Virus genome (UHGV): UHGV-0174115
Source: a virus
Direction: 5' to 3' (one strand)
DNA: 23,432 bases
Positions 1 through 15,210 of this stretch are shown piece by piece. Position 1 is the stretch's first letter; each line of letters opens with the position of its first letter. The translations under genes were made by a program, and so were the position numbers. The notes below the pieces were generated by a model. The model did no database searches, was not told the DNA's origin, and was given only the letters and a program-made list of their open reading frames with translations.

Positions 1-55
1 GCCTACACCAGCGGCAGCACCTGTAGCAGCGCCTACACCAGCGGCAGCACCTGTA
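1..55 (+). repeat. In-frame tandem repeat (25-nt core gcctacaccagcggcagcacctgta twice, 30-nt period) encoding PTPAAAPVAA x2
   Basis: Direct repeat visible at 1-25 and 31-55; runs to the window edge so copy number may be higher upstream. Confidence 0.7.
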
Positions 56-196
56 AAAGTAATGACTGAAAAAGCAGGTGGTGCAACTTACGAACAGTTT
101 ATTGCGCAAGGTTGGAACGATGAACAACTGATCGCTAACGGTTATATGGTAATGACCACCCCGGCCCCGAATTTTCTCAACGGTAACGGTTACTGA
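2..196 (+). CDS. Hypothetical protein, 3' end only (5' end outside window); Pro/Ala-rich repeat linker then ~45-aa C-terminal domain
   Basis: Open frame from window edge to TGA at 194-196, translating ...PTPAAAPVAAPTPAAAPVKVMTEKAGGATYEQFIAQGWNDEQLIANGYMVMTTPAPNFLNGNGY*. Confidence 0.5.
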   Translation, partial: PTPAAAPVAAPTPAAAPVKVMTEKAGGATYEQFIAQGWNDEQLIANGYMVMTTPAPNFLNGNGY

Positions 197-537: not shown

Positions 538-558
538 GGGGCCATAGTGCCCCATTTA
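538..558 (+). promoter_or_regulatory. Conserved 21-nt element ggggccatagtgccccattta, copy 2
   Basis: Exact repeat of 239-259, placed 18 nt upstream of the polymerase-like gene start at 576. Confidence 0.4.
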
Positions 559-575
559 CTTATCAGGGTTTTATT

Positions 576-2432
576 ATGTCAGATGCTTACGTTCACGATA
601 TTGAAAACTATCCTAATGTTTTTCTGTTCGGTGCTATTCATGCGTTAACTGAAACACCTTATATTTTTGAGATTTCACATCGTCGCGATGATCGTCAGGC
701 TTTTTACCTGTTCACGGAATATTTGCGTGAACATCGTGCTGAAGAAGTTGGTTATAACAATCTGGGTTACGACTATCCTGTTCAGCATTCTATTTTGAAC
801 AACATCATGTATATCACCAACGCAGACATTTATAAAAAAGGTGATTCGATAATTAACGCTGGTGATGAAAATCGTTTTGCTCATATGGTGTGGGAAAAAG
901 ACTGGATAGTTCCCCAACTTGATTTGTATAAAATTCATCATTTCGACAATCAGGCAAAACGAACAAGTCTGAAAACACTTGAATTCAATATGAGAATGGA
1001 AAACATTGAAGACCTCCCATTTACGCCAGGGACTTACTTAACCAATTCTCAAATTGATACGCTTCGTCAATATCTGATACACGATTTAAAAGCGACTTTG
1101 ATATTTTATAAACACAGTAAAAAACTGATCGATTTTCGTCGTGAACTTTCTGCTAAATACGGTCGTAATTTCATGAACCATAACGACACGAAAATTGGTA
1201 AAGATTATTTCATTATGGAACTTGAAAAATCAGGTATTCAATGTTTCGAACCGGGTAGCAGAAAACCACGACAGACGCACAGACCATCAATCGCATTAAA
1301 CAGCGTGATTTTCCCTTATGTCCGTTTTGAACAGCCTGAATTTAATCGTGTTCTTAACTGGTTACGTCAACAGGTCATCACTGAAACAAAAGGCGTGTTT
1401 ACTGATTTAAGCGCTGACATTAACGGGTTCTCGTTTGATTTTGGTACGGGTGGTATCCACGGGTCTATTGAATCTCAAACTATCAGGTCCACTGAAAATT
1501 ATGTGATCATCGATCTGGACGTTGCCAGTTTTTACCCGAACCTTGCGATCAGTAATGAACTTTATCCGGCACATCTGGGTAAACAATTTTGCACCATTTA
1601 TAAAAATGTTTATGACATGCGTTCCAGTTACCCGAAAGGTACACCAGAAAATGCAATGTTAAAACTGGCGTTAAACGGTGTGTATGGTGACAGTAATAAC
1701 GTATACAGTCCATTCTACGATCCTGCTTATACAATGGCTATTACGATTAATGGACAGTTACTTTTGTGCATGTTGGCTGAAGAACTTCTGAAAATCTCTG
1801 GTTTGTCCATGATCCAGGCTAACACAGATGGTCTTACGGTTTACGTGCCACGAGTGTTTACCGGACAAGTAGAACAGGTTCGTCACGCGTGGGAAAAATT
1901 AACCAGACTCCAGCTTGAAGAAGCGATTTATGACGTGATGTTTATCCGCGATGTAAATAACTACATCGCTGTTTATGAAGGTGGTAAGAAAGTTAAACGT
2001 AAAGGTGCTTATTGTCACAGTGTTGATCTGGGTTGGCATCAAAACCACAGTATGCAAGTTGTCGCAAAAGCGGCTGAAGCAGCACTGGTACACAATAAAG
2101 ACATTCGTGATTTTATAACATCACACGAAGACATTCACGATTTTATGTTGGTGACGAAAGTACCGCGTAACAGCAAATTACTATGGGGTGATAAACAAGT
2201 TCAGAATATCACTCGTTATTATGTCAGTACAGATGGTGCGCCGTTGACAAAAGTTATGCCACCGCTGGCAAAATCACTGAAACTGAATCCTGACGCGCCT
2301 GAACGCCGTATGTCAGTGTGCAAAGGTTGGTTGACCACTGAGTGCAACGACATGAAACGTTTTAACCGGACAACGCTCAATTATGATTTTTACATCAAAG
2401 AAGCTGAAAAACTCGTTGCACCACTTCGGTAA
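576..2432 (+). CDS. Family-B DNA polymerase-like protein (618 aa), compact, with 3'-5' exonuclease-like motifs
   Basis: PolB-like motifs read in order: DIE near N-terminus (Exo I-like), HFDN (Exo II-like), YLIHD (Exo III YxxxD), DLDVASFYPN (motif A, DxxSLYP), KLALNGVYG (motif B, Kx3NSxYG), NTDG (motif C position, normally DTDS), KRKGAY (KxY-like). Start ATG 576 with AGGG 7 nt upstream. Motif-level only. Confidence 0.6.
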   Translation: MSDAYVHDIENYPNVFLFGAIHALTETPYIFEISHRRDDRQAFYLFTEYLREHRAEEVGYNNLGYDYPVQHSILNNIMYITNADIYKKGDSIINAGDENRFAHMVWEKDWIVPQLDLYKIHHFDNQAKRTSLKTLEFNMRMENIEDLPFTPGTYLTNSQIDTLRQYLIHDLKATLIFYKHSKKLIDFRRELSAKYGRNFMNHNDTKIGKDYFIMELEKSGIQCFEPGSRKPRQTHRPSIALNSVIFPYVRFEQPEFNRVLNWLRQQVITETKGVFTDLSADINGFSFDFGTGGIHGSIESQTIRSTENYVIIDLDVASFYPNLAISNELYPAHLGKQFCTIYKNVYDMRSSYPKGTPENAMLKLALNGVYGDSNNVYSPFYDPAYTMAITINGQLLLCMLAEELLKISGLSMIQANTDGLTVYVPRVFTGQVEQVRHAWEKLTRLQLEEAIYDVMFIRDVNNYIAVYEGGKKVKRKGAYCHSVDLGWHQNHSMQVVAKAAEAALVHNKDIRDFITSHEDIHDFMLVTKVPRNSKLLWGDKQVQNITRYYVSTDGAPLTKVMPPLAKSLKLNPDAPERRMSVCKGWLTTECNDMKRFNRTTLNYDFYIKEAEKLVAPLR

Positions 2433-2471: not shown

Positions 2472-3008
2472 ATGCATACTTCACACAAATTCGTAGCTGG
2501 TTCACCGATTGGTGTCTTTACTCCCGGTAAAATTTATAACCGTGTTGACGGGTTCACCCGTGACGGTCGTTCCCGTGGTTTTTATATTGATGACCGTGGT
2601 GAATTTCGTTTAACAGACGACGACATGTTCGAACCTGCAGAACAGGTCCAACTGCGTTTACCACAGATGCCAATGTTCCCGGCCCGTCAGGAACGTCTTA
2701 AACTGGCTGCACGCTGGGGAACGTCTGAAATCAGTATCAGTAACTGGTACAAAGTTGATGACCTGATGAAACCGTGGCGCATCAGTGACGCTATTTGTGG
2801 CACTCGTGTTCTTACAGAACCTAATACAACGACATTTAAACCTGGTGAACTGGCTGAACTGGCTAACTCCCGTGGTTATCTGCTGTCTGAATTATCCGTT
2901 CGTTGGGGATGGCATTACGGATGTGAAACTTTACACACTATCAGCACGGATCCGCGCCGTGTTGCGCTTATCTGGGATATGTTAGAAGGAATGAATCGTC
3001 ATGACTGA
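2472..3008 (+). CDS. Hypothetical protein (178 aa)
   Basis: ATG 2472 with GAGG 9 nt upstream; long ORF with no shadow competitor of similar length; no recognisable motif. Confidence 0.55.
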   Translation: MHTSHKFVAGSPIGVFTPGKIYNRVDGFTRDGRSRGFYIDDRGEFRLTDDDMFEPAEQVQLRLPQMPMFPARQERLKLAARWGTSEISISNWYKVDDLMKPWRISDAICGTRVLTEPNTTTFKPGELAELANSRGYLLSELSVRWGWHYGCETLHTISTDPRRVALIWDMLEGMNRHD

Positions 3009-3293: not shown

Positions 3294-3647
3294 ATGATTA
3301 AACTCTGTTACATTGCCGGGCCTTATCGCGCTGATTGTGCGCTTAAAACATCCCGTAACGTGTCGCGCGCTGAACAGGCAGGTAAACGACTTGCTTTACA
3401 ACGTCCGGGGTGGTTCCCGGTTATCCCTCACAAGAACACCGAATTGTGGGACTTTGACGGCGGTTTACGCAATATACAACCTGAATACTACCTGTCAGGC
3501 ACATTAGAAGTTATGCGCCGCTGTGACGCTGTTCTGGTGCTTCCTGATTATCGTCGTTCATCTGGTACGCTAGCAGAAATTGCAGAAGCTGAACGTCTGG
3601 GTATTCCTGTGTATTACAGCGTGGAGAGCGTACCGGAACATGGCTAA
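3294..3647 (+). CDS. DUF4406-like protein (nucleoside 2-deoxyribosyltransferase-like fold), 117 aa
   Basis: MIKLCYIAGPY... N-terminus and CDAVLVLPDYRRSSGTLAEIAEAERLGIPV C-terminal motif as recalled for the DUF4406/NDT-like family; ATG 3294 with AGGA 8 nt upstream (track start 3264 is TTG). Confidence 0.55.
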   Translation: MIKLCYIAGPYRADCALKTSRNVSRAEQAGKRLALQRPGWFPVIPHKNTELWDFDGGLRNIQPEYYLSGTLEVMRRCDAVLVLPDYRRSSGTLAEIAEAERLGIPVYYSVESVPEHG

Positions 3648-4161
3648 AGACAACTGGGAAACACCGTGGGATTTTATTGATAATGTTTCTCGTGAATTCC
3701 CGCTTGTTCTTGATGTGTGTACCGATGGTTCTAACGCTAAATGTTCGTTGTTTATCACTGATAGTCTGAATAAAGACTGGCATTCGATTGTTCAAAGTAA
3801 TGGTGGTGGGTTCGTCTGGTGTAACCCACCGTACAGCGATCCGTCCCCCTGGGTTAATAAAATAATAACCACTGTTTATCAGGGAACTGGTTCGTTATTA
3901 CTTGTGAACGCTATGACGTCTGCAGACTGGTTTCATAAAGCACTGACACATTGTTCAGAACTATGGGTATTTAAAGGTCGTATAGCGTTTGTAGATCCTG
4001 ACACCGGGTTACCTGCAGGCGGAAATGACCGTTCACAGGTGATGTTTGTTTTCGACCCACATCATATCGGTGAATGTAAAACGAGATCTGTAAAAGTTTC
4101 CGACTATCAGAAAATAAAACGACAAGCGTACAGGAGTTATTGTTATGTCCACAATCGTTGA
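3640..4161 (+). CDS. dam: Phage-type DNA N6-adenine methyltransferase (Dam family)
   Basis: N-terminal WETPWDF and catalytic NPPY motif (GFVWCNPPYS) typical of phage Dam N6-adenine MTases; ATG 3640 overlaps upstream stop (ATGGCTAA). Confidence 0.85.
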   Translation: MAKDNWETPWDFIDNVSREFPLVLDVCTDGSNAKCSLFITDSLNKDWHSIVQSNGGGFVWCNPPYSDPSPWVNKIITTVYQGTGSLLLVNAMTSADWFHKALTHCSELWVFKGRIAFVDPDTGLPAGGNDRSQVMFVFDPHHIGECKTRSVKVSDYQKIKRQAYRSYCYVHNR

Positions 4162-4378
4162 ATTCAACCCTATGGATCCTGCTAAACGCCCAACAGGACG
4201 CTTTGCAAGATTGCCACAAACACGCGAACAGTTTTTTCCATTGTTGAACATGCGAGGGATTAAAACAGATCCACACGGGTTGATAGGAACATCCTTGTTC
4301 ATGTACCGAACTGAATATCCGGTTCCCGCATCGTGGATTGAGGTGTCGGTTGAAGATTTACTGAAGACTGTCTACTAA
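4145..4378 (+). CDS. Hypothetical small protein (77 aa)
   Basis: ATG 4145 with AGGAG 8 nt upstream; 3' end overlaps the convergent o-spanin 3' end. Confidence 0.4.
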   Translation: MSTIVEFNPMDPAKRPTGRFARLPQTREQFFPLLNMRGIKTDPHGLIGTSLFMYRTEYPVPASWIEVSVEDLLKTVY

Positions 4379-4606
4379 TGCGTTGTGAATAGTTGCACAT
4401 TTGAAATAAATATCTAACCACTGGTCATTAACATCTGTTGAATCATTTCCTGTCAGACCGTTCAGCCGTGGAAGGTTTTCGGTCTGACACTTCTGAACTA
4501 ATGCGGCCTGATAAACGGGCTTCTGCTTCGGTAACTCGTTCGTTGTACAAGCGTTGATATTCAGAAGTAAGACACTCGTTACGAAAAACAGTATTAGTCT
4601 TTTCAT
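4358..4606 (-). CDS. Outer-membrane spanin (o-spanin, Rz1-like lipoprotein)
   Basis: Signal peptide plus lipobox-like LLLNINAC; 82 aa; out of frame and overlapping the 3' part of the i-spanin gene (overlapped spanin architecture). Confidence 0.55.
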   Translation of the reverse strand: MKRLILFFVTSVLLLNINACTTNELPKQKPVYQAALVQKCQTENLPRLNGLTGNDSTDVNDQWLDIYFKCATIHNALVDSLQ

Positions 4607-4841
4607 GTCGTATTTCCACGATTTTAGTATTCTGCGACCAGTCAGCTAAACCACGAAGTACATCATCCGCTAGTTCCTGTTGTGCTTTTAACCGTTGTTG
4701 TTCCAGTTCAATAGCATCTAGTTGTTCCTGACGTTCTTCGTTTAACCGTGCTTTATATCCAGCGTGGTAACACGTATACGCACCTACGCTTAACACAAGA
4801 ACGGTCGCAACAACGGTGATTAGCACACTACGGGTTGTCAT
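4443..4841 (-). CDS. Inner-membrane spanin (i-spanin, Rz-like)
   Basis: N-terminal TMD (VLITVVATVLVLSVGAY) followed by charged coiled-coil-like region; directly downstream of the endolysin region; contains the overlapped o-spanin ORF. Confidence 0.6.
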   Translation of the reverse strand: MTTRSVLITVVATVLVLSVGAYTCYHAGYKARLNEERQEQLDAIELEQQRLKAQQELADDVLRGLADWSQNTKIVEIRHEKTNTVFRNECLTSEYQRLYNERVTEAEARLSGRISSEVSDRKPSTAERSDRK

Positions 4842-5058
4842 TTGGTGTACCTCGTTGTTTATCTACAGCGATTTTTTTAGCACCAACATACTGACCTATA
4901 CAGAAACCGAAATAGGTTAACAACACTGTATCATCAAGTGTGCGGTCCACGGCCTGATAAATCAGAATGCCTGTTACCACGAGGAAGCCTAAAGCCGCTT
5001 GTGCGCGGCTTAAAGAGATCCCCCCGGTTGTGTTACGTAATATGCTGAATTTATCCAT
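4828..5058 (-). CDS. Small two-TMD membrane protein (holin/antiholin-like)
   Basis: Two hydrophobic segments (AALGFLVVTGILIY, VLLTYFGFCIGQYVG); start uncertain (ATG 5058 chosen; an ATG at 5088 would overlap the endolysin 3' end). Confidence 0.45.
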   Translation of the reverse strand: MDKFSILRNTTGGISLSRAQAALGFLVVTGILIYQAVDRTLDDTVLLTYFGFCIGQYVGAKKIAVDKQRGTPNDNP

Positions 5059-5068
5059 GATTGTTATC

Positions 5069-5458
5069 TCACGCGGGATATTTCGCATGTGGTAACTGGA
5101 AGTGTGGACCATCTTTCAGTGTTTTCCAGTCACCACCCCATTCAACAGGGATATTCAGTTCTTTTGCAGCCTGTTTAAATGCAGTGGCAATCTGTTCGTA
5201 ATATTTCCATTCCCATGATCCGGCAGATGTAGGATAAGCAAATACATCCACGGCGTGACCCGAAATATGGCGACTGTTCATCGTCTGACTTTTACCTGCA
5301 GCAACTAGTTGTCGTTGTCGTTCAACAGTTCGTAAACCTTCTGTGATACCGAAATCAACGGGTGATAACTGAAGTGCCCGACGCACGATTTTCACAAGAT
5401 CTGGGTTAACCCCTTTCAGATTGTTTTCGCTTCTCTGACTGAATTTAAAGTTACTCAT
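5069..5458 (-). CDS. Endolysin, peptidase M15 family (L-alanyl-D-glutamate peptidase type)
   Basis: Zn-ligand pattern SRHISGHAVDV ... DGPHFQL and overall similarity to T5-type M15 endolysins; ATGA overlap with upstream gene. Confidence 0.85.
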   Translation of the reverse strand: MSNFKFSQRSENNLKGVNPDLVKIVRRALQLSPVDFGITEGLRTVERQRQLVAAGKSQTMNSRHISGHAVDVFAYPTSAGSWEWKYYEQIATAFKQAAKELNIPVEWGGDWKTLKDGPHFQLPHAKYPA

Positions 5459-5778
5459 TGCTTACTCCCGGTTTTACGTTGTTCCGCTTTCAAACCTTCA
5501 ATAACAACTTTCAGGTCATTTGTTGACTGTGTTAGCTCTTTAACACTAGTGAGGATTTCAGCGTTCTGTGTGGCCTGATATTCGATTTTGATGTCGTGAA
5601 CATCCACTCGGGATTCCACTCGCTTTGCCAGATTAAGCGCCTCATGCGCATAGGTTTTTGCATCAGTAATATCTTTTTCATTAGAATTGATTTGGTTTTG
5701 AGTTACTCCGTAACCTACCAACCCCGTGGCAACAAATGCTATTATAGGCCAATACCTTAACACTGGGTTATCAGACAT
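5455..5778 (-). CDS. Single-TMD protein upstream of endolysin (putative holin)
   Basis: N-terminal TMD (YWPIIAFVATGLVGYGV) then charged helical C-terminus; first gene of the lysis cluster; AGGAG 9 nt upstream of ATG 5778. Confidence 0.4.
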   Translation of the reverse strand: MSDNPVLRYWPIIAFVATGLVGYGVTQNQINSNEKDITDAKTYAHEALNLAKRVESRVDVHDIKIEYQATQNAEILTSVKELTQSTNDLKVVIEGLKAEQRKTGSKQ

Positions 5779-5804
5779 TGTTTTACACTCCTGGAGAATT
5801 AAAG

Positions 5805-8411
5805 ATGGCTAACTGTAACGATTATATCAGCGCTGATGATTTGAAAACAGGCAAACAAGCGATTTTACATATTGAGCATGTAGCGAAAAGTCGTGATGCT
5901 GCTGGCAACCCTGCACTGGAAGTAACAGATACTATTCGTGGTGAATCAGTTACTAACAAGACGCTTGATGGTTTACAGCGAATGTACACGGGGGCCATTA
6001 GTCAAGTTGGTTATGTCACACTAAAAAGTTTTCAATCAGGCGTACCTTTGCCGAATAACGAACTGACACTACCGAATCAAGTATTACAAGATGAAACAGA
6101 CGGTGAATACTACAGATGGGATGGTGTTTTCCCTAAGGTTGTCCCATCTGGCTCAACACCAGTTAGCACGGGGGGCATTGGTGTAGGTGCATGGTTAAGC
6201 GTTGGAGATTCCACTCTTCGTAGTCAGGTTGAAATTACCGCTGAGTCAATTGGTGTTGTAAGTGGTGTTGTTTCGCAATCTGTAGCAAAATCCAACGCTG
6301 ATATTATCAATGCTAAAGCGGCAGAGATAAGTGCTGTGGGTGGTGGGAAAATAATTTTCACCAGAGATTTATATCAGGTGCATATGAATGAGTCTGATTT
6401 TAGTTCTTCACCCGAAACAATTCGAGTAGCAGCGCTTTGTATTCCTTATGATAATGTAATTCTCGAAGGTCAAGGATGGAATTCAACTACTATACAAGCA
6501 TGGGCAACCAACTCCGCATATGGTGTTTTGCAGTGGTCAAAAGCACCATTGCAAAATGGTGTGACGAAAGTTCATGGTGTGGGTCTACACAACATTTGTA
6601 TCGATGGTAATTACCAAGGGGATTTCACACCGGGGTCTTATGTAAGACAGACAGAAGGGATTGTAGGTGCAGGCATTGAAGGTTTGAGCATCAACAACCT
6701 CAAGGTTAAAAACTGTTCCCACTATGGGATGGGTTTGCAGAACGGCGGCTACAAAGGGTGCATTATTGATGGTTACTGGTCAGAAAATACCGGTGCTGAT
6801 GGTATCGATATTAAAGATAATGGCTCAGTCAGCCGTGCATTCCAGTTAAATAACATCTTTGTTTTTAATTTTGGACAACTTGATGAACCAAAGAACCCAT
6901 GGGCTGGTGTTGATGTCATGTCAATTGCGCCAAAAGTATCTAATGTCTACATTTCTGACTTTGGAGATGTTGGTTGCCCAGGGGCGGGTGTTCGCATAAA
7001 GCAGGGACCAATAGGTGATCTGGCTGGAAGGGGATCAAGTGCGTGGGCAAATGTTTCTGACATAACGGTTGTACAAAACAGGTTTGGTGCAGCTTATACG
7101 ACATTGATTGGGCTGCACATAAAAGCTCCTTTTGTAAACTTCAGCAACATCGTTGCAATAGGATACGAAGGCGGGAGAATGAAAAATGGCGTCTGGATAG
7201 AAGAGAGGCACAGCCGGGGTTCTAATATTCAGATAGCCAACGCGGAAGATGGTTTATCTGTTACCGCCTCAACCAGTGGCACATCTGATGGACGACAGTA
7301 TGGTGATGGTGACGATACGGTAATTAACGGCCTTGTATGCAGAGATGTTAACCGGGCTGCAATCATCAACAGGAAATACGTGAAGTTAAGTGGGATAACT
7401 TTTAAAGATTGCCCTGTAGGGTTTGTATCTGGTGGTAGTGGCTCTGGTAAAATAACGATAAAAGGGGTGCATTTAGATAATGTTCCAAACCCATTTGGTC
7501 TAATGGGCGGAACTCACCACATCATCACTGATGTTACCGGCCCAAGCTCTGCAGATTGGCAGGCTGGGACTGGTGTTATAAAAGGTGCAAGTGATTTTGT
7601 TGCCACCACAATCATGAGCAAAAATAGCATACGTCTTTATTCTGGCTCCACAGATGATGCGCTTGGTACGGAAGTCGCGCGCTTTGCCTCGACTGTAAGT
7701 GATGTATTTTCTACGCTGCGTATCACTGGCAACCTCCAGCCGGTCGCCGCTAACACATATTCTGTAGGTACAAACTCATTGCCATGGGCAGGCGGTTATA
7801 CCCAGACGGCGTTTACTGTCACCTCCGATGAAAGGCAAAAATCTCGCCCAGTGATGCTGGCTCGTGGTTCTCTCGAACCCGCCCAAACGACAGATTCACG
7901 GTTAATGGAAGCCCCGTACGCAGATGATATTCTGGATGCCTGGGCGGAAGTAGATTTCGTTCAGTTCCAGTTCATTGACCGAATAGAGGTAAAGGGAGAC
8001 GATGGTGCGCGCTGGCACTTTGGAATTATTGCTCAGCGTGCCAAGGAGGCATTTGAACGCCACGGACTTGACCCTCACAAGTTTGCTTTCTTCTGTTACG
8101 ATCCAGAAGAAACCATTCCTGCTGTGTATGAATCCGTCCCGGCGAAGTATGAAGTTGTGCCAGCCGTTTATGATGCCGATGGGAATCTGGTTTCGCCAGA
8201 GTTGTGGGAAATGACTGAACCAGCGCATGAAAAGTTGGTGGCTGAGTCATATGTTGTTGGTGAGAAGTATGGTATCCGTTATGAAGAGGCGTTAGTCCTT
8301 GAAGCTGCATTACAACGAAGGAAATATACAAGACTCTTGACGTTAACCGAAAAACTAGCGTCAAGAGTAGAAATACTAGCGTCAAGAGTAGAAATACTAG
8401 AAAAGAAATAA
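5805..8411 (+). CDS. Tailspike/tail fibre with beta-helix (pectate-lyase-like) region and C-terminal intramolecular chaperone (peptidase S74-like) domain
   Basis: Gly/Asn-rich central region (e.g. NCSHYGMGLQNGGYKGCIIDGYWSENTGADGIDIKDNG) and C-terminal ...DSRLMEAPYADDILDAWAEVDFVQFQFIDRI...ARWHFGIIAQ... resembling endosialidase-type chaperone domains. ATG 5805 with GGAG 8 nt upstream (track 5778 is TTG). Confidence 0.8.
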   Translation: MANCNDYISADDLKTGKQAILHIEHVAKSRDAAGNPALEVTDTIRGESVTNKTLDGLQRMYTGAISQVGYVTLKSFQSGVPLPNNELTLPNQVLQDETDGEYYRWDGVFPKVVPSGSTPVSTGGIGVGAWLSVGDSTLRSQVEITAESIGVVSGVVSQSVAKSNADIINAKAAEISAVGGGKIIFTRDLYQVHMNESDFSSSPETIRVAALCIPYDNVILEGQGWNSTTIQAWATNSAYGVLQWSKAPLQNGVTKVHGVGLHNICIDGNYQGDFTPGSYVRQTEGIVGAGIEGLSINNLKVKNCSHYGMGLQNGGYKGCIIDGYWSENTGADGIDIKDNGSVSRAFQLNNIFVFNFGQLDEPKNPWAGVDVMSIAPKVSNVYISDFGDVGCPGAGVRIKQGPIGDLAGRGSSAWANVSDITVVQNRFGAAYTTLIGLHIKAPFVNFSNIVAIGYEGGRMKNGVWIEERHSRGSNIQIANAEDGLSVTASTSGTSDGRQYGDGDDTVINGLVCRDVNRAAIINRKYVKLSGITFKDCPVGFVSGGSGSGKITIKGVHLDNVPNPFGLMGGTHHIITDVTGPSSADWQAGTGVIKGASDFVATTIMSKNSIRLYSGSTDDALGTEVARFASTVSDVFSTLRITGNLQPVAANTYSVGTNSLPWAGGYTQTAFTVTSDERQKSRPVMLARGSLEPAQTTDSRLMEAPYADDILDAWAEVDFVQFQFIDRIEVKGDDGARWHFGIIAQRAKEAFERHGLDPHKFAFFCYDPEETIPAVYESVPAKYEVVPAVYDADGNLVSPELWEMTEPAHEKLVAESYVVGEKYGIRYEEALVLEAALQRRKYTRLLTLTEKLASRVEILASRVEILEKK
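8355..8396 (+). repeat. Perfect 21-nt tandem duplication (ctagcgtcaagagtagaaata x2) encoding LASRVEI x2 at the tailspike C-terminus
   Basis: Direct read of sequence; in-frame heptad duplication followed by LEKK and stop. Confidence 0.75.
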
Positions 8412-11795: not shown

Positions 11796-12295
11796 TCTGG
11801 TGTCCACGCATTGTTTAAGAGTAAGCCAGTATCAATAATTTCTTTAAGGTAACAAGCAGCGTAATCACCCTGGCATTTAGTGATTAACAATCGTGACGCC
11901 ATTGCGCAACGGTCGATTACCGGAACAGCTTGCAACTGTAGATCGACAGATCCTTTCCATCCTACAACAGAGGATGACGGGTTACTGACAATCTGAACAA
12001 CGTGTTCCTGAATCAAACCGTTCACAAACAGTTGCATCACAAACCGCTTACTACCTTCAGCGATTTCCATATTATAAAAGTCGTCCCACCACTGAAGCAT
12101 CGCAGGACTGTATAACTGAATTGTACACGACACCTGAGCAGGACCACCAAAGGCGCTACGACCTAACCGTGATAGCGTCCCGGAAATATCAGATTTAGTT
12201 ACACCCCACGGTGGACTATAACTGTAATTATCACGCTCAGGTAACACCATTTTCGCGCCGTACTCAAGCCGTGGTAAATCATCTGTATTGCTCAT
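11792..12295 (-). CDS. Minor tail (tip assembly) protein
   Basis: Immediately downstream of the tape measure gene, with start overlapping its stop (TAATG). Confidence 0.4.
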   Translation of the reverse strand: MSNTDDLPRLEYGAKMVLPERDNYSYSPPWGVTKSDISGTLSRLGRSAFGGPAQVSCTIQLYSPAMLQWWDDFYNMEIAEGSKRFVMQLFVNGLIQEHVVQIVSNPSSSVVGWKGSVDLQLQAVPVIDRCAMASRLLITKCQGDYAACYLKEIIDTGLLLNNAWTPE

Positions 12296-15210
12296 TATAT
12301 TTTCCTGTTCGCATCATAGTTAGACCTGAACGCTTTATTTGTCTGACTGTACGGGTCATTCCATTGTGCCGCTGATTGTCGTGGGAATTCTTCACCTATG
12401 ATAAGCACTACATCATCCCGTGTTAATCCTTGTTTCACCTGAACACGTTCACCACCGTAGTTATGAACCTGAATATTAGGTGATGAACCACCTTCAGATC
12501 CGGGGGTGTATGTCCCGCGATTCATTGCTTCCAGAGTGCTACGATAACGACTGGTAGCCTGTTTGGTACTGACAAACTCACCATTACTCAAACGTGCGTT
12601 TATACTGTCACTCTGACCTGTACCCGGACCTTTAACATAACCACCCGTTGCAAAACCTGTTGCAGCCACAGACTGAATGTTACCTAACACGCTTGTTCCG
12701 TATGATAAAGCCTGTGCAATGAATGGAATATTCGCCGGGAACGGCAACGCCATAGCCTGACTAACGGCTGTCCACAGGTTAATACTCGCCTGTGCGATAC
12801 TAAAGGCTTTAGACAGTGCAAACATCGCTTTATACGCGTTTGATTGCTCACCTTTAGATTGTGCCAGACCAGCAGCCATTTGACCCAAAAAATCAGCACT
12901 GGATTGTAGCAACAAGCTGTAGTTAGCATTTGCAAGATTCGTACGGGCTTGTTCCCCAGCCTGTTGAATCTGCGTTTTCATATCCTGGTATTGTTGCTCG
13001 TTGATTAAATCTTGTTCACGGGCAGTTTGGATAATACTAAGACGTGTTGCTTCCTGTTGATTAACCTGATCAATTTGTGATTGATACGGGTTCAACTGTG
13101 CTTTCACATCAATGTCAACTTGTTTTACATCTGCGCTTAACTGTGCTATCTGCTGTTGACGTTGCAATGCAGCCACATGTGCATCAACAGCAGCACGTTC
13201 AGCATCTGTCGCGTCTTTATTCAGTCGTGACTGTGCTTCTGCCTGTTGTGACGCCAGCGTTAACTGTTGACGTACCTGATATTCTTTCTGATATGTTGCT
13301 GTAAGTTGTTCAACAGACGACCCCTGTGTTAAAGCAATCTGAACCTGTTCGCGTGCTAACTGAACATCATAATTACCAGCATTGATTTTATCCTGAAGCG
13401 TTTTCAGGTATTTCTGGTTAGCAGCCTGATTACGTTCCAGTTCTTTCTGTGCACGTTTAGCCGCAGATGCTTCAGCACTGGCTAATTTCTTCTGGTTTTT
13501 TTGATTTTCTTTATATTCTGCCTGTTGTTTCAACAACGCGGCGTAGTCTGCAATCTGTTCCTTTGTTGCTTTGTTACCCAGTTTCTGACTTGCTGCCAGT
13601 TCATAATTACCGTCAGCAAGCGCCTGGGTATAGGTAATCTGTTCTTTCAGGTTTTTAATCTGTTTTGCAGATTCGGCATCAGGACGTCCGGCAGCCTGAG
13701 CAGCCGTAATACTCGCCTGTAAAGTGCTTGCCTGATTTGCAAGATTTTCAGCAACACCTTTACCCAACGGAGTAGCCTGAACAACCCCTCGTTGTGCTTC
13801 TGCTTGTTGTTTTGTTAACTGAACATCAAGTTTTTTAAGTTCGTTTAATTTCTTCTGTGCAGCACTGGTGTCACCAACAAATTTTGTATACCCACCAATT
13901 GACTGTATTGTATACCCACGCTGAATTTGTGCTTCCAGATCTGCAATTTCTTTCAGATTGGCTTCGCGTTTTGCGGTAACACTGTTCAGATTGTTAGTGG
14001 CTTGTGCCAGTTTGTCAGCACCTGCAGCGGCTTTTATTAACTCTGTTGTACCCGATACACCACCTGCTAACAGGTCCAGGAATTTAGCCAGGAATTTAGA
14101 TGCGCCAATCTGCTGATCGAGTTCAGCGATAGCCACGGACAGGTTGTTACGTAACGCAGTGGCAGACTGATCTACAGAACGAGGAAGTTTATCGAACTGT
14201 GCGTTGATTTCATCAGTCGCGTTGTTTAACAACAACAGTTTATCACGGGTAATTTCACCATCAGAACCCAACTGTTTAAGTTCACCCGTGGTAACACCCA
14301 TCTGTTTAGCCAGCACCTGAAGAACAGTTGGTAACTGTTCCGACACAGATTTGAATTCATCACCCTGCAAAAGACCAGATGCAAATGCCTGTGATAATTG
14401 ATAAATAGCCGCTGATGCTTCAGCACTGGATGCGCCAGATACACGGGCCATTTTTTGCAGGTTGTCGGTAAACTGTAAAATAACCTGATTACTAATCCCG
14501 GCATCTTTACCAGCAGCGGCAAAACGCTGAAAACTGTTTGCCACAGCGTCAATATCTGTACCAGCACGGTTAGCCTGTTGTACTAATTGCGCAAAAATCT
14601 GTTGTGATTCAACCGACGTTGATGTGTACAGATTAATGCGACTCTGTAGCAGTTCAACTTTCGTTGCAGTATCTACAAACGCTTTACCCCAGTCGTAAAG
14701 TGATCCTGCAATCTGTAAACCAACAAACGCTTTTGCACCAGTGACAAGTGTTTCAAGAGCGCCTTTAGTTTTTTGTGTTGATTGATTAGTGTTATTCTGC
14801 TGATTATCAAGTTTTTTAAGACTGTTAGTCAGATCGTCAATTGCTTTCTTTTCATCAGCAGTTGCTTGTTTGATAATTTTGGCTAATTCAGCAAATTTCT
14901 GTTGATTATTAACAGTCTGACCAGCCGCACGAGCAGCAGCACCCTGTGTTGCTAACAGGCGTGATTGTTCCTGTGCTGCTTCACGAGTAGCCCTAGCTAC
15001 AGCAACAGCTTTAGTAGCCTGATTAGCTTGTTGTTGTGCTAGTTGCTGTGCTGCTTTTGCAACCTGCTGTTCAGCCACAGATAACTGATTAGCAGCCTGT
15101 GCTGCTGCTATGGTTGATTTTTCAGTCTGATCTAACTGACTGTTAAGATTATTAAGATTGCGGTCAGCCGAACCGGTGTCAATCTTAATATCAATAGGAT
15201 ATTGTGCCAT
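12295..15210 (-). CDS. Tail tape measure protein (971 aa)
   Basis: Long Ala/Gln/Leu/Lys-rich helical protein in the canonical position after the frameshifted tail chaperone pair and before the tip proteins. Confidence 0.85.
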   Translation of the reverse strand: MAQYPIDIKIDTGSADRNLNNLNSQLDQTEKSTIAAAQAANQLSVAEQQVAKAAQQLAQQQANQATKAVAVARATREAAQEQSRLLATQGAAARAAGQTVNNQQKFAELAKIIKQATADEKKAIDDLTNSLKKLDNQQNNTNQSTQKTKGALETLVTGAKAFVGLQIAGSLYDWGKAFVDTATKVELLQSRINLYTSTSVESQQIFAQLVQQANRAGTDIDAVANSFQRFAAAGKDAGISNQVILQFTDNLQKMARVSGASSAEASAAIYQLSQAFASGLLQGDEFKSVSEQLPTVLQVLAKQMGVTTGELKQLGSDGEITRDKLLLLNNATDEINAQFDKLPRSVDQSATALRNNLSVAIAELDQQIGASKFLAKFLDLLAGGVSGTTELIKAAAGADKLAQATNNLNSVTAKREANLKEIADLEAQIQRGYTIQSIGGYTKFVGDTSAAQKKLNELKKLDVQLTKQQAEAQRGVVQATPLGKGVAENLANQASTLQASITAAQAAGRPDAESAKQIKNLKEQITYTQALADGNYELAASQKLGNKATKEQIADYAALLKQQAEYKENQKNQKKLASAEASAAKRAQKELERNQAANQKYLKTLQDKINAGNYDVQLAREQVQIALTQGSSVEQLTATYQKEYQVRQQLTLASQQAEAQSRLNKDATDAERAAVDAHVAALQRQQQIAQLSADVKQVDIDVKAQLNPYQSQIDQVNQQEATRLSIIQTAREQDLINEQQYQDMKTQIQQAGEQARTNLANANYSLLLQSSADFLGQMAAGLAQSKGEQSNAYKAMFALSKAFSIAQASINLWTAVSQAMALPFPANIPFIAQALSYGTSVLGNIQSVAATGFATGGYVKGPGTGQSDSINARLSNGEFVSTKQATSRYRSTLEAMNRGTYTPGSEGGSSPNIQVHNYGGERVQVKQGLTRDDVVLIIGEEFPRQSAAQWNDPYSQTNKAFRSNYDANRKI

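Follow-up and report, generated by a model that had tools for sequence, protein, structure and literature searches.

The gene at positions 576..2432 (+ strand) of the window, a 23,432-nt stretch of the virus genome UHGV-0174115, encodes a 618-aa family B DNA polymerase (PolB). The protein is very probably the replicative, primer-dependent and proofreading PolB of Sashavirus, a member of a large phage-specific PolB lineage that includes the crAss-like PolBs. The ORF starts with ATG and exists exactly as given in the first-pass annotation. The source phage, a Sashavirus, is a virulent E. coli siphovirus of the 9NA-like type. The polymerase family is already known and catalogued, and the gene is an ordinary phage replicase. 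Polymerase activity of the 618-aa protein is predicted from its sequence; in the literature, no biochemical characterisation was found for any member of this exact polymerase lineage.

The PHROG profile phrog_1252 ('DNA polymerase') matched the 618-aa protein with an E-value of 2.8e-214, and Sashavirus proteins annotated as 'DNA polymerase' showed 99-100% amino acid identity to it. Homologs were found in 969 phage records and formed 4,843 clusters at 50% identity; this diversity was drawn from a cluster-representative search and a profile query, the first homolog search having returned only proteins at least 98% identical. Pfam gave no match to the window polymerase, DNA_pol_B included. Among 55 relatives, PF10108 (DNA_pol_B_exo2) was matched by 31, and PF00136 was weakly touched by two. 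NCBIfam returned only Pol II matches, far under the cut-off. When the family profile was run against the PDB, it matched PolBs and nothing else (E = 1.2e-6), and the alignments paired motifs A, B, C and KxY. Of the PolB profile check proposed in the first-pass annotation, the Pfam part thus came up empty for the window protein, but the family profile did reach solved PolBs. The three-dimensional fold is that of a PolB, with an N-terminal 3'-5' exonuclease followed by the palm, fingers and thumb subdomains; the AF2 model had a pLDDT of 94.8 and a pTM of 0.90.

With 618 aa versus a family median of 659, the polymerase is among the more compact members. Relatives carry insertions of 30-100 aa after residues 275, 539 and 567 that are absent here, and the earlier remark that the protein lacks large insertions was right. 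The motifs and their conservation, given below as counts in an alignment of 157 polymerase relatives, likewise bear out the earlier view of a compact family B polymerase, and its proofreading exonuclease is intact.

All three exonuclease motifs were recovered. ExoI (D8-I-E10; 597..605, +) holds the exonuclease metal ligands, and its D and E were found in 152/157 relatives, the other five having gaps. ExoII (N61-N-L-G-Y-D66; 756..773, +) retained N61 in 152 and D66 in 154 of the 157, and in ExoIII (Y166-L-I-H-D170; 1071..1085, +) both Y166 and D170 were kept in 155/157. D8 and E10 align to D712 and E714 of GP55, the replicase of Lactococcus phage 1706, and alanine mutants of these two GP55 residues are without exonuclease activity (PMC12205980).

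The polymerase motifs A and B noted earlier are indeed recognisable. Motif A (D313-L-D315-V-A-S318-F-Y320-P321, followed by N; 1512..1538, +) aligned to the archaeal LDfrSlYPs, and D315 was present in 157/157. By this conservation D315 is assigned as the catalytic metal ligand of motif A; the corresponding part of GP55, LLDVESLHP, contains D949, which is essential for synthesis (PMC12205980). Motif B (K363-L-A-L-N367-G-V-Y-G371; 1662..1688, +), the fingers helix involved in dNTP binding, was in register with KilaNsfYG of solved PolBs, with K363 and G371 in 157/157 and N367 in 156/157. In HMMER alignments to the Thermococcus 9N and KOD polymerases, iidLDvaSfYPn was paired with ivyLDfrSlYPs, KlalNgvYG with KilaNsfYG and qaNTDG with yaDTDG. 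Motifs A, B and C are therefore aligned with the PolB catalytic residues, and the suggested register check turned up no displacement. Additionally, the segment F289-G-T-G292-G293-I-H295 (1440..1460, +) follows a family-invariant GGxH pattern, G292, G293 and H295 being found in 13/13 full-length phage lineages. It occupies the position of the PolB YxGG motif and would be its equivalent.

The motif C variant (Q414-A-N416-T417-D418-G419; 1815..1832, +) is where the protein departs from the canonical DTD. N416 occupies the place of the first Asp and D418 is the second catalytic Asp, and qaNTDG aligned without a gap to yaDTDG of the 9N and KOD polymerases. The replacement by Asn reported in the first-pass annotation was confirmed: N416, T417 and D418 were each invariant in 157/157 relatives and in 14/14 phage lineages sampled, crAss-like phages among them. 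A second departure was found at the KxY motif, whose canonical Lys senses the minor groove; here N461-N462-Y463 (1956..1964, +) falls on K592-K-Y594 of the 9N polymerase, with N461 in 155/157 and Y463 in 156/157. In terms of PolB membership, the second, metal-ligand Asp of motif C and the Tyr of KxY (Y463) are thus present, and the first Asp and the KxY Lys are absent. The two changes co-occur in crAssphage LMMB, cr115_1 and CAjan, as well as in phages of Leuconostoc, Enterococcus, Staphylococcus, Stenotrophomonas, Achromobacter, Pseudomonas, Rhodobacter and Acinetobacter. A basic strand, K474-R-K476-G477 (1995..2006, +), follows and aligns to the 'tTRGl' strand of archaeal PolB; K474, K476 and G477 were found in 151/157, 126/157 and 143/157, respectively.

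We consider N416 and N461 most likely to be fixed, lineage-defining substitutions that are compatible with full activity, and not inactivating mutations. Work on RB69, phi29 and Pol epsilon has reported the KxY Lys to be essential, and its change to Ala in other PolBs nearly abolishes synthesis (PMC4333401). However, Kazlauskas et al. 2020 (PMC7544198) described MotifC and KxY as 'profoundly' different in the crAss-like and HelPrimPolB groups of PolBs, and activity is documented for PolBs without the first Asp of motif C, namely piPolB with TTD (PMC5695915) and GP55 with KTD (PMC12205980). Since this position is Thr in active piPolB and Lys in active GP55, the first Asp of motif C is needed neither for membership in PolB nor for activity.

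Near the primer 3' end, the two Asn residues might be coupled and stand in for the canonical Asp/Lys pair in a charge-neutral way; the positive charge missing there may come from the conserved K474 and K476. D313 was considered as a carboxylate compensating for the missing motif C Asp and was rejected. This extra Asp is kept only among closer relatives, and it is not the general solution because crAssphage LMMB and phages of Leuconostoc, Enterococcus, Staphylococcus and Stenotrophomonas have H, Q, M, K or R at its position. If N416 and N461 are coupled, the hold on the catalytic metal and on the primer terminus may change. The Asn pair could then be more than a neutral signature and could give the clade distinct properties, such as another balance between polymerase and exonuclease, a changed metal preference, or the ability to accept unusual primers or modified bases; we regard this proposal as rather unlikely.

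The genomic context is that of a replication gene. Positions 2..196 (+) hold the 3' end of a gene for a Gp2.5-like ssDNA-binding/annealing protein (SSB), cut by the window edge, whose frame translation ends at 196. Base 1 of the window corresponds to position 101 of the Sasha locus, inside the CDS gp63 'Gp2.5-like ssDNA binding protein' that ends at 296. This SSB gene is the final gene of the replication module ahead of the polymerase, in the same order as in Bas82 and 9NA. The full order in these two phages is PrimPol-D5 helicase, DEDDh exonuclease, SNF2/DEAD helicase, PD-(D/E)XK nuclease, Gp2.5-like SSB and polymerase. A GGGGC/GCCCC hairpin (538..558, +) lies upstream of the polymerase start and is followed by an AGGG ribosome-binding site (about 565-568); at equivalent positions, the Sasha annotation has a terminator (locus 338-355) and an RBS (367-370). 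The lysis genes are on the - strand (4358-5778), with five + strand genes between them and the polymerase. The earlier statement that the polymerase is encoded beside the lysis cassette and outside a replication module was wrong, as the module lies directly upstream in complete relatives, past the left edge of the window. That impression was an artefact, because the window edge cuts off the upstream replication module.

Downstream of the polymerase, a gene for a 178-aa protein (2472-3008) was found in 31 phage records, all from the 9NA/Sasha/Proteus-Isfahan clade, versus 969 for the polymerase, and its product had no match in PDB, Pfam or NCBIfam. As a clade-restricted protein without a database match, it was rejected as a general accessory or processivity factor and as a terminal protein. 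In Guyu and CAjan, a sliding clamp gene adjoins the polymerase. In the 9NA-like replication module, Pfam detected neither a sliding clamp nor any further type of processivity factor, and a clamp there was rejected: the genes upstream in Bas82 encode a DUF2800/PD-(D/E)XK nuclease, the SSB and a 256-aa protein without a Pfam match.

The gene content and the conserved residues suggest how the enzyme would work. The AEP PrimPol-SF3 helicase of the phage would unwind the DNA and lay primers, and the Gp2.5-like SSB would coat the single strands. Judging from conservation and the alignment to solved PolBs, the primers would be extended by two-metal catalysis at D315 (motif A) and D418 (motif C), with the dNTP bound by K363 and N367 of motif B and by R349. 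Errors would be removed by a DEDDy site consisting of D8, E10, D66, Y166 and D170, as homology to the validated GP55 residues predicts.

The missing canonical residues could also be read as damage. The protein would then be a partly inactivated or repurposed PolB (exonuclease-only, structural, or active in translesion synthesis or repair like archaeal PolB2), and a host or another phage polymerase would replicate the genome. The loss of the first Asp of the near-universal DTD, the loss of a Lys that is essential in RB69, phi29 and Pol epsilon, and the absent Pfam DNA_pol_B match are all consistent with this. However, a decaying active site would vary, yet both Asn substitutions are invariant over thousands of clusters, alongside conserved D315, D418, K363, N367 and G371 and a complete exonuclease site. 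The loss or variability of the catalytic Asp residues of motifs A and C and of the exonuclease residues, which marks inactivated homologs such as PolB2 and the C-terminal half of Pol epsilon, is absent, D315, D418 and the DEDDy residues being kept. Moreover, dN/dS was 0.051 against Sasha and 0.039 against Bas82, and the protein is the sole annotated polymerase in the complete relative Bas82. In the same clade, PolB was swapped for PolA in situ between Vibrio phages of 99.5% ANI, with 1.237.B as the one that has PolA (PMC11348598). Finally, piPolB and GP55, both without the first motif C Asp, are efficient polymerases. Inactivation or repurposing, raised in the first-pass annotation, is thus unsupported, and we consider it very unlikely. 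Since curated profile libraries such as Pfam DNA_pol_B miss the family, a motif-based reader can take the conserved N-T-D for a lesion.

An intact enzyme might instead start DNA synthesis de novo, as piPolB does. The motif changes run parallel in the two proteins, with (T/N)-T-D-G as motif C and the KxY Lys missing, and the 'KTRG' motif of piPolB has a similar counterpart in the conserved K-R-K-G strand at 474-477. But the window polymerase has neither TPR1 nor TPR2, and the KH-X8-KTRG pattern is missing, the residues upstream of K474 being NNYIAVYEGGKKV. The gene lies among the replication genes of a virulent phage that encodes its own AEP primase-helicase, and not in a pipolin. For de novo synthesis, the related GP55 depends on the separate primase domain and not on the PolB domain (PMC12205980). 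Little probability is therefore left for a piPolB-like mode of initiation.

A protein-primed polymerase of the phi29 type, which would start replication from a terminal protein at linear genome ends, is almost certainly not what the gene encodes, and this part of the first-pass annotation is largely refuted. The compact size of 618 aa would suit such an enzyme, as would ExoI at residue 8, with no N-terminal domain ahead of it. The exonuclease motifs do lie at almost the residue numbers of phi29, as had been claimed (D9/E11, D63 and Y162/D166 in the phi29 RefSeq protein, whose numbering is the canonical one minus 3). However, motifs A and B (D315 to K363) are 48 residues apart versus 134 in phi29, and motifs B and C (K363 to D418) are 55 apart versus 75; because of these spacings, TPR1 and TPR2 must be absent, and 55 is the spacing of archaeal PolB (9N), to which this stretch aligned without a gap. 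The family HMM gave no reported match to phi29 DNAP. When GP55 and phi29 were aligned globally to the family HMM with hmmalign, the polymerase half stayed unaligned, and local hmmsearch domains were used. Compared with phi29 DNAP, the window polymerase is longer by 65 residues from ExoIII to motif A and by 80 residues in the thumb/C-terminal region, and it has NTD and NNY in place of DTD and KTY.

The relatives point away from protein priming as well. 9NA packages circularly permuted DNA by a pac/headful mechanism and has no specific ends (PMC4153490), and the deposited Bas82 record is circular and includes genes for the small and the large terminase. In the annotations of Bas82 and 9NA, the polymerase is flanked by the SSB and the clade-restricted 178-aa protein, neither of which is a terminal protein. 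For these relatives, the proposed look for a terminal protein gene or inverted terminal repeats gave a negative answer. Additionally, relatives encode an AEP PrimPol-SF3 helicase, and the 9NA PolB falls in the PolBmain cluster of Kazlauskas et al., not in their pPolB cluster.

The DNAP of Enterococcus phage IME199 (PMC10590003) was tried as a biochemical proxy and rejected, as its published residues (D30, E32, D112, D251, S360, D596 and Y639) could not be mapped onto the homolog from an Enterococcus siphovirus. IME199 was absent from the 60 listed of the 103 relatives of that homolog. The IME199 enzyme was modelled on phi29 and linked to phages with terminal inverted repeats (PMC10590003), and we treat it as a phi29-type enzyme that provides no evidence for the family of the window polymerase.

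For genome annotation, the identification of a primer-dependent, proofreading PolB changes little, since near-identical phages already call the gene a DNA polymerase and the family appears in published PolB surveys. Its interest lies in the family, which is very large, holds the crAssphage replicase and does without two residues that, when mutated, cripple the polymerases RB69, phi29 and Pol epsilon. In at least 4,800 clusters (50% identity), including that of crAssphage, the most abundant human-gut virus, both near-universal 'essential' PolB residues are swapped for Asn. As a compact, single-subunit, mesophilic PolB that proofreads and comes from an E. coli phage that is easy to grow, the enzyme would be a convenient model for the question posed by the missing residues.

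Among the closest known systems are the polymerases of 9NA, a Salmonella phage (gp65), of phage Sasha (gp62) and, from E. coli, of PJ16, AVIO78A and Bas82. These phages share the gene order SSB, polymerase and 178-aa ORF, and their records annotate the gene as 'DNA polymerase'. The amino acid identity of the polymerase was 98-99% to Sasha, Bas82 and PJ16 and 58% to 9NA, and there is no substantive difference in the polymerase itself. Unlike these relatives of the 9NA/Sasha type, the window has an extra cassette of about 299 bp between the SSB and polymerase genes, which was found in no GenBank relative. Sashavirus and Nonanavirus have been listed as encoding PolB (Yutin et al. 2024, PMC11348598), and the 9NA PolB was placed in PolBmain in Supplementary Table S2 of Kazlauskas et al. 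2020 (PMC7544198).

The crAss-like PolBs, from crAssphage (Carjivirus) and Birpovirus cr115_1, are full-length homologs (tblastn E = 2e-62 for cr115_1 and 2e-27 for crAssphage LMMB). They share with the window polymerase an ExoI at the extreme N-terminus, a motif C that reads N-T-D-G and N-x-Y at the KxY position, and the published trait of the crAss-like group, divergent MotifC and KxY (PMC7544198), fits the window polymerase. By homology and this shared signature, the polymerase most likely belongs to the group that Kazlauskas et al. 2020 call 'crAss-like', within the Pol-epsilon-N-like clade. However, its identity to the crAss enzymes is just 25-29%, it is shorter (618 aa versus 665-775 aa), and it has D313 two residues ahead of the catalytic D315, which crAssphage LMMB does not. 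Moreover, it is encoded by a 55-58 kb enterobacterial siphovirus.

In piPolB, the first motif C Asp (TTD; NTD here) and the KxY Lys are also lost and activity is kept (PMC5695915), whereas TPR1, TPR2, KH-X8-KTRG and the location in an integrated mobile element are found in piPolB and not in the window polymerase. GP55, a helicase-primase-PolB 'four-in-one' replicase of the HelPrimPolB group, is a homolog that scored 94 bits against the family HMM, with local hmmsearch domains covering the exonuclease domain, motifs B-C and the thumb. Both polymerisation and proofreading were demonstrated experimentally for GP55, in which D949 corresponds to D315 of the window polymerase (PMC12205980). The two differ at the first position of motif C (Lys in GP55, Asn here) and in motif A (DVESLHP in GP55, DVASFYP here), and the SF3 helicase and AEP primase that are fused to GP55 are encoded by a separate gene in the relatives of the window phage.

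Translation and ORF listing confirmed an ORF at 576-2432 (+ strand) with an ATG start and a product of 618 amino acids. Pattern searches recovered all the motifs named in the first-pass annotation, namely ExoI (D8-I-E10), ExoII (N61-N-L-G-Y-D66), ExoIII (Y166-L-I-H-D170), motif A (D315-V-A-S-F-Y-P), motif B (K363-L-A-L-N-G-V-Y-G) and motif C (Q414-A-N416-T-D418-G). The exonuclease motifs were indeed found at phi29-like positions, with residue numbers almost equal to those in the fetched phi29 polymerase. The protein had no Pfam match and was assigned to phrog_1252 ('DNA polymerase', E=2.8e-214) by PHROGs; PF10108, a PolB-type exonuclease family, was matched by 31 of 55 relatives. In a phmmer search, the single sequence matched PDB sequences weakly, all of them PolBs. 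Specifically, iidLDvaSfYPn, KlalNgvYG, qaNTDG and vNNYiav were aligned to ivyLDfrSlYPs, KilaNsfYG, yaDTDG and kKKYavi, respectively, of the Thermococcus 9N and KOD polymerases, without a gap between motifs B and C. A profile search and a structure prediction, both among the checks proposed in the first-pass annotation, gave the same answer. A profile built from 55 family members matched PDB PolBs more strongly than the single sequence did (E=1.2e-6), and all 48 PDB sequences at E<=0.1 were PolBs (archaeal enzymes, Pol alpha, Pol II, RB69/T4 and ASFV). The AlphaFold2 model, with the family alignment as input, had a mean pLDDT of 94.8 and a pTM of 0.90, and Foldseek matched it to PolBs throughout its top 50 (probability 1.00, E about 1e-14 to 5e-13). 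The protein is a family B polymerase with its motifs in register with the PolB catalytic residues.

The window shares 96% nucleotide identity with Sashavirus genomes (E. coli phages 536P12, AVIO78A, Bas82 and PJ16), 91% with Salmonella phage Sasha and about 82% with phage 9NA, and public databases hold proteins 99-100% identical to the polymerase, several of them named DNA polymerase. The family was detected by tblastn in 969 phage records, including Crassvirales, Seuratvirus CAjan, Rheinheimera Barba phages and Leuconostoc, Enterococcus, Pseudomonas and Vibrio phages, and an exhaustive HMMER scan yielded 4,843 representatives of 50%-identity clusters. Sashavirus and Nonanavirus are listed as PolB-encoding genera by Yutin et al. 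2024, who also described how PolB was replaced in situ by PolA between a pair of Vibrio phages of this clade sharing 99.5% ANI (PMC11348598). The polymerase gene is a frequent insertion target in the family. Many relatives have insertions, variable in sequence or length, at three fixed sites, namely after residues 275 (48 sequences, median 51 aa), 539 (11 sequences, median 33 aa) and 567 (56 sequences, median 33 aa) of the window protein, and some homologs, for example, in Klebsiella phage FZ14, were broken into two or three tblastn pieces near homing-endonuclease-type genes.

An alignment of 157 sequences combined the window protein with six named phage polymerases and 150 representatives at 42-56% identity. 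N416, which replaces the first Asp of the canonical motif C, T417 and D418 were each present in 157/157, and D315, K363 and G371 were equally invariant. The exonuclease Asp, Glu and Tyr residues were conserved in at least 152 sequences. At the KxY motif, which lies at the primer terminus, the Lys position was Asn (N461) in 155/157 and Y463 was kept in 156/157. A second sample came from the weakest-scoring part of the tblastn ranking, which was not selected on motif. N-T-D and N-x-Y were found in all 14 of its lineages, including crAssphage LMMB, cr115_1, CAjan, and Leuconostoc, Enterococcus, Staphylococcus, Stenotrophomonas, Achromobacter, Pseudomonas (two), Rhodobacter and Acinetobacter phages. 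Purifying selection on the polymerase gene is strong, with a dN/dS of 0.051 in the comparison with Sasha and 0.039 in that with Bas82 (dS about 0.14). PolBs bind their metals through the Asp of motif A and the second Asp of motif C, both of which are intact here. In the RB69 literature, D411 and D623 are placed on the metals, and D621 belongs to the 'triad' only 'directly or indirectly'. The replaced Asp had raised the possibility of a partly inactivated PolB, which is contradicted by the invariant N-T-D, the intact metal ligands and the dN/dS values; the motif C variant is a lineage signature, not a lesion.

A protein-primed enzyme, also considered in the first-pass annotation, did not survive comparison with phi29. 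The interval from motif A to motif B is 48 residues in the window protein versus 134 in phi29, where it contains the TPR1 insertion, and that from motif B to motif C is 55 versus 75, the latter containing TPR2; the motif B-to-C spacing is exactly equal to that of archaeal PolBs. The ExoIII-to-motif A interval (145 versus 80) and the region after KxY (155 versus 75) also differ. The phi29 DNA polymerase had no reported match to the family HMM, and 9NA DNA is circularly permuted and packaged from a pac site (PMC4153490). Moreover, the 633-aa 9NA polymerase was placed in the PolBmain cluster, not the protein-primed cluster, in the supplementary table of Kazlauskas et al. (PMC7544198). A piPolB-like enzyme, the primer-independent type of pipolins, was rejected because the window protein has no TPR1, TPR2 or KH-X8-KTRG motif, there is no pipolin context and the phage encodes its own primase.

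The apparent isolation of this family B polymerase beside the lysis cassette was an artefact of the window start, since replication genes lie directly upstream in the complete genomes of Bas82 and 9NA. Their order is a primase gene, a DEDDh exonuclease, an SNF2/DEAD helicase, a 256-aa protein of unassigned function, a DUF2800/PD-(D/E)XK nuclease and a Gp2.5-like SSB, followed by the polymerase (domains from Pfam). The primase gene is identified as an AEP primase-helicase because it carries an NrS-1-type PrimPol helix-bundle domain, D5_N and an SF3 helicase domain in Pfam. Bases 2-196 of the window are the final 65 codons of the SSB gene. No second polymerase is annotated anywhere in the Bas82 genome. 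In some distant members of the family, Pseudomonas phage Guyu (L012 188-1351) and CAjan (L003 4853-5806), a sliding-clamp-like gene, annotated as 'putative replicative clamp' or 'DNA polymerase beta subunit', is directly upstream of the polymerase, whereas none was recognised by Pfam in the 9NA-like module; processivity factors therefore appear to differ within the family.

The C-terminal SSB tail contains a tandem repeat of PTPAAAPV-type units (1-55), where a 'direct tandem repeat region' is annotated in Sasha, and ends in ...FLNGNGY. A 21-nt sequence, GGGGCCATAGTGCCCCATTTA, is perfectly repeated in direct orientation between the SSB and polymerase genes, at 239-259 and 538-558; each copy forms a GGGGC/GCCCC hairpin that is annotated as a terminator in Sasha. 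The repeats bracket an insertion of ~299 bp (intervening segment about 260-537) that was present in 0/22 matching GenBank phage records, in which the flanks alone match and are contiguous. It carries a small ORF (275-529, +; 84 aa) without Pfam, PHROG or NCBIfam matches, whose weak relatives (33-34% identity, E about 5e-4) are hypothetical proteins of other E. coli phages. The segment resembles a moron-type cassette whose insertion at the terminator also duplicated it.

Downstream of the polymerase, five small + strand genes precede the lysis cassette on the opposite strand. They encode a 178-aa protein, a phrog_444 protein whose positional counterpart is annotated as NinX in Sasha and 9NA, a nucleoside-deoxyribosyltransferase-like protein, a Dam methylase and a 77-aa protein. 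The 178-aa ORF (2472-3008, +) starts 40 nt past the polymerase stop codon, matches phrog_19205 (function unassigned) over its full length and has no PDB, Pfam or NCBIfam match. It directly follows the polymerase in the inspected annotations of Bas82, 9NA and Sasha and was found in only 31 phage records, all of the 9NA/Sasha/Klebsiella/Proteus-Isfahan clade; the protein is no general partner for polymerases of this family. The methyltransferase slot (3580-4161, +) holds a short Dam-type enzyme (PF05869, about 173-193 aa) in the window and Bas82 and a 393-aa methyltransferase in 9NA and Sasha (L007 15367-16548, L017 3477-4658); the methylase type looks to have been swapped in situ between close relatives. 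The 877-aa tail spike (5778-8411, +) carries a Tail_spike_N adaptor domain of the TSP1/Gp66 type at its N terminus and a Peptidase_S74 intramolecular chaperone at its C terminus. Its receptor-binding part has been exchanged, because nucleotide similarity to all Sashavirus relatives ends inside the gene at about 5975-6136, and Bas82 has a 647-aa fibre instead. The gene directly abuts a tail-protein gene (-) at 8411/8412 (gap 0). Bas82 carries one more gene there, Bas82_0054 (130 aa, annotated 'single strand DNA binding protein'), which the window lacks. Within the tape-measure gene (12295-15210, -), the AT skew reached -0.27 at 13001-14000, whereas it stays within about +/-0.1 in the rest of the window, and this stretch of the protein is probably compositionally biased or repetitive.

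The polymerase combines a PolB fold with complete conserved catalytic sets for both activities, and its strongly constrained gene is placed in a replication module; TPR insertions are absent. We infer that it would extend primers from the phage PrimPol-helicase on an SSB-coated template, with proofreading presumably performed by its DEDDy site. In other PolBs, the KxY Lys contacts the minor groove through a hydrogen bond to the n-2 base; changing it to Ala nearly abolished synthesis in RB69 and Pol epsilon (PMC4333401). Because the two changes always co-occur, N416 and N461 might stand in, close to the primer 3' end, for the canonical Asp/Lys pair. An Asn such as N461 could still give and take minor-groove hydrogen bonds, and the positive charge may be supplied by the conserved K474/K476 on the next strand. 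An extra Asp, D313, was rejected as a compensator since it is absent from distant family members.

The finding is real but ordinary, because near-identical genomes already have the gene correctly annotated, two surveys have catalogued the family, and Kazlauskas et al. had pointed out the deviation at motif C and KxY in the crAss-like PolB group. Literature searches found no biochemically characterised member of this exact lineage, which includes the crAssphage replicase and is without two residues essential in other PolBs. Among known systems, piPolBs carry T-T-D at motif C and polymerise efficiently (PMC5695915). GP55, the helicase-primase-PolB of phage 1706, carries K-T-D and is a demonstrated polymerase with proofreading (PMC12205980); its PolB domain scored 94 bits against the window-protein family HMM, with motifs B-C aligned in register. 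Exonuclease activity was lost in GP55 D712A/E714A and synthesis in D949A (PMC12205980). D712/E714 align to D8/E10 of the window protein, and D949 lies within LLDVESLHP, the counterpart of its motif A. PolB activity without the first motif C Asp therefore has precedent in piPolBs and GP55.
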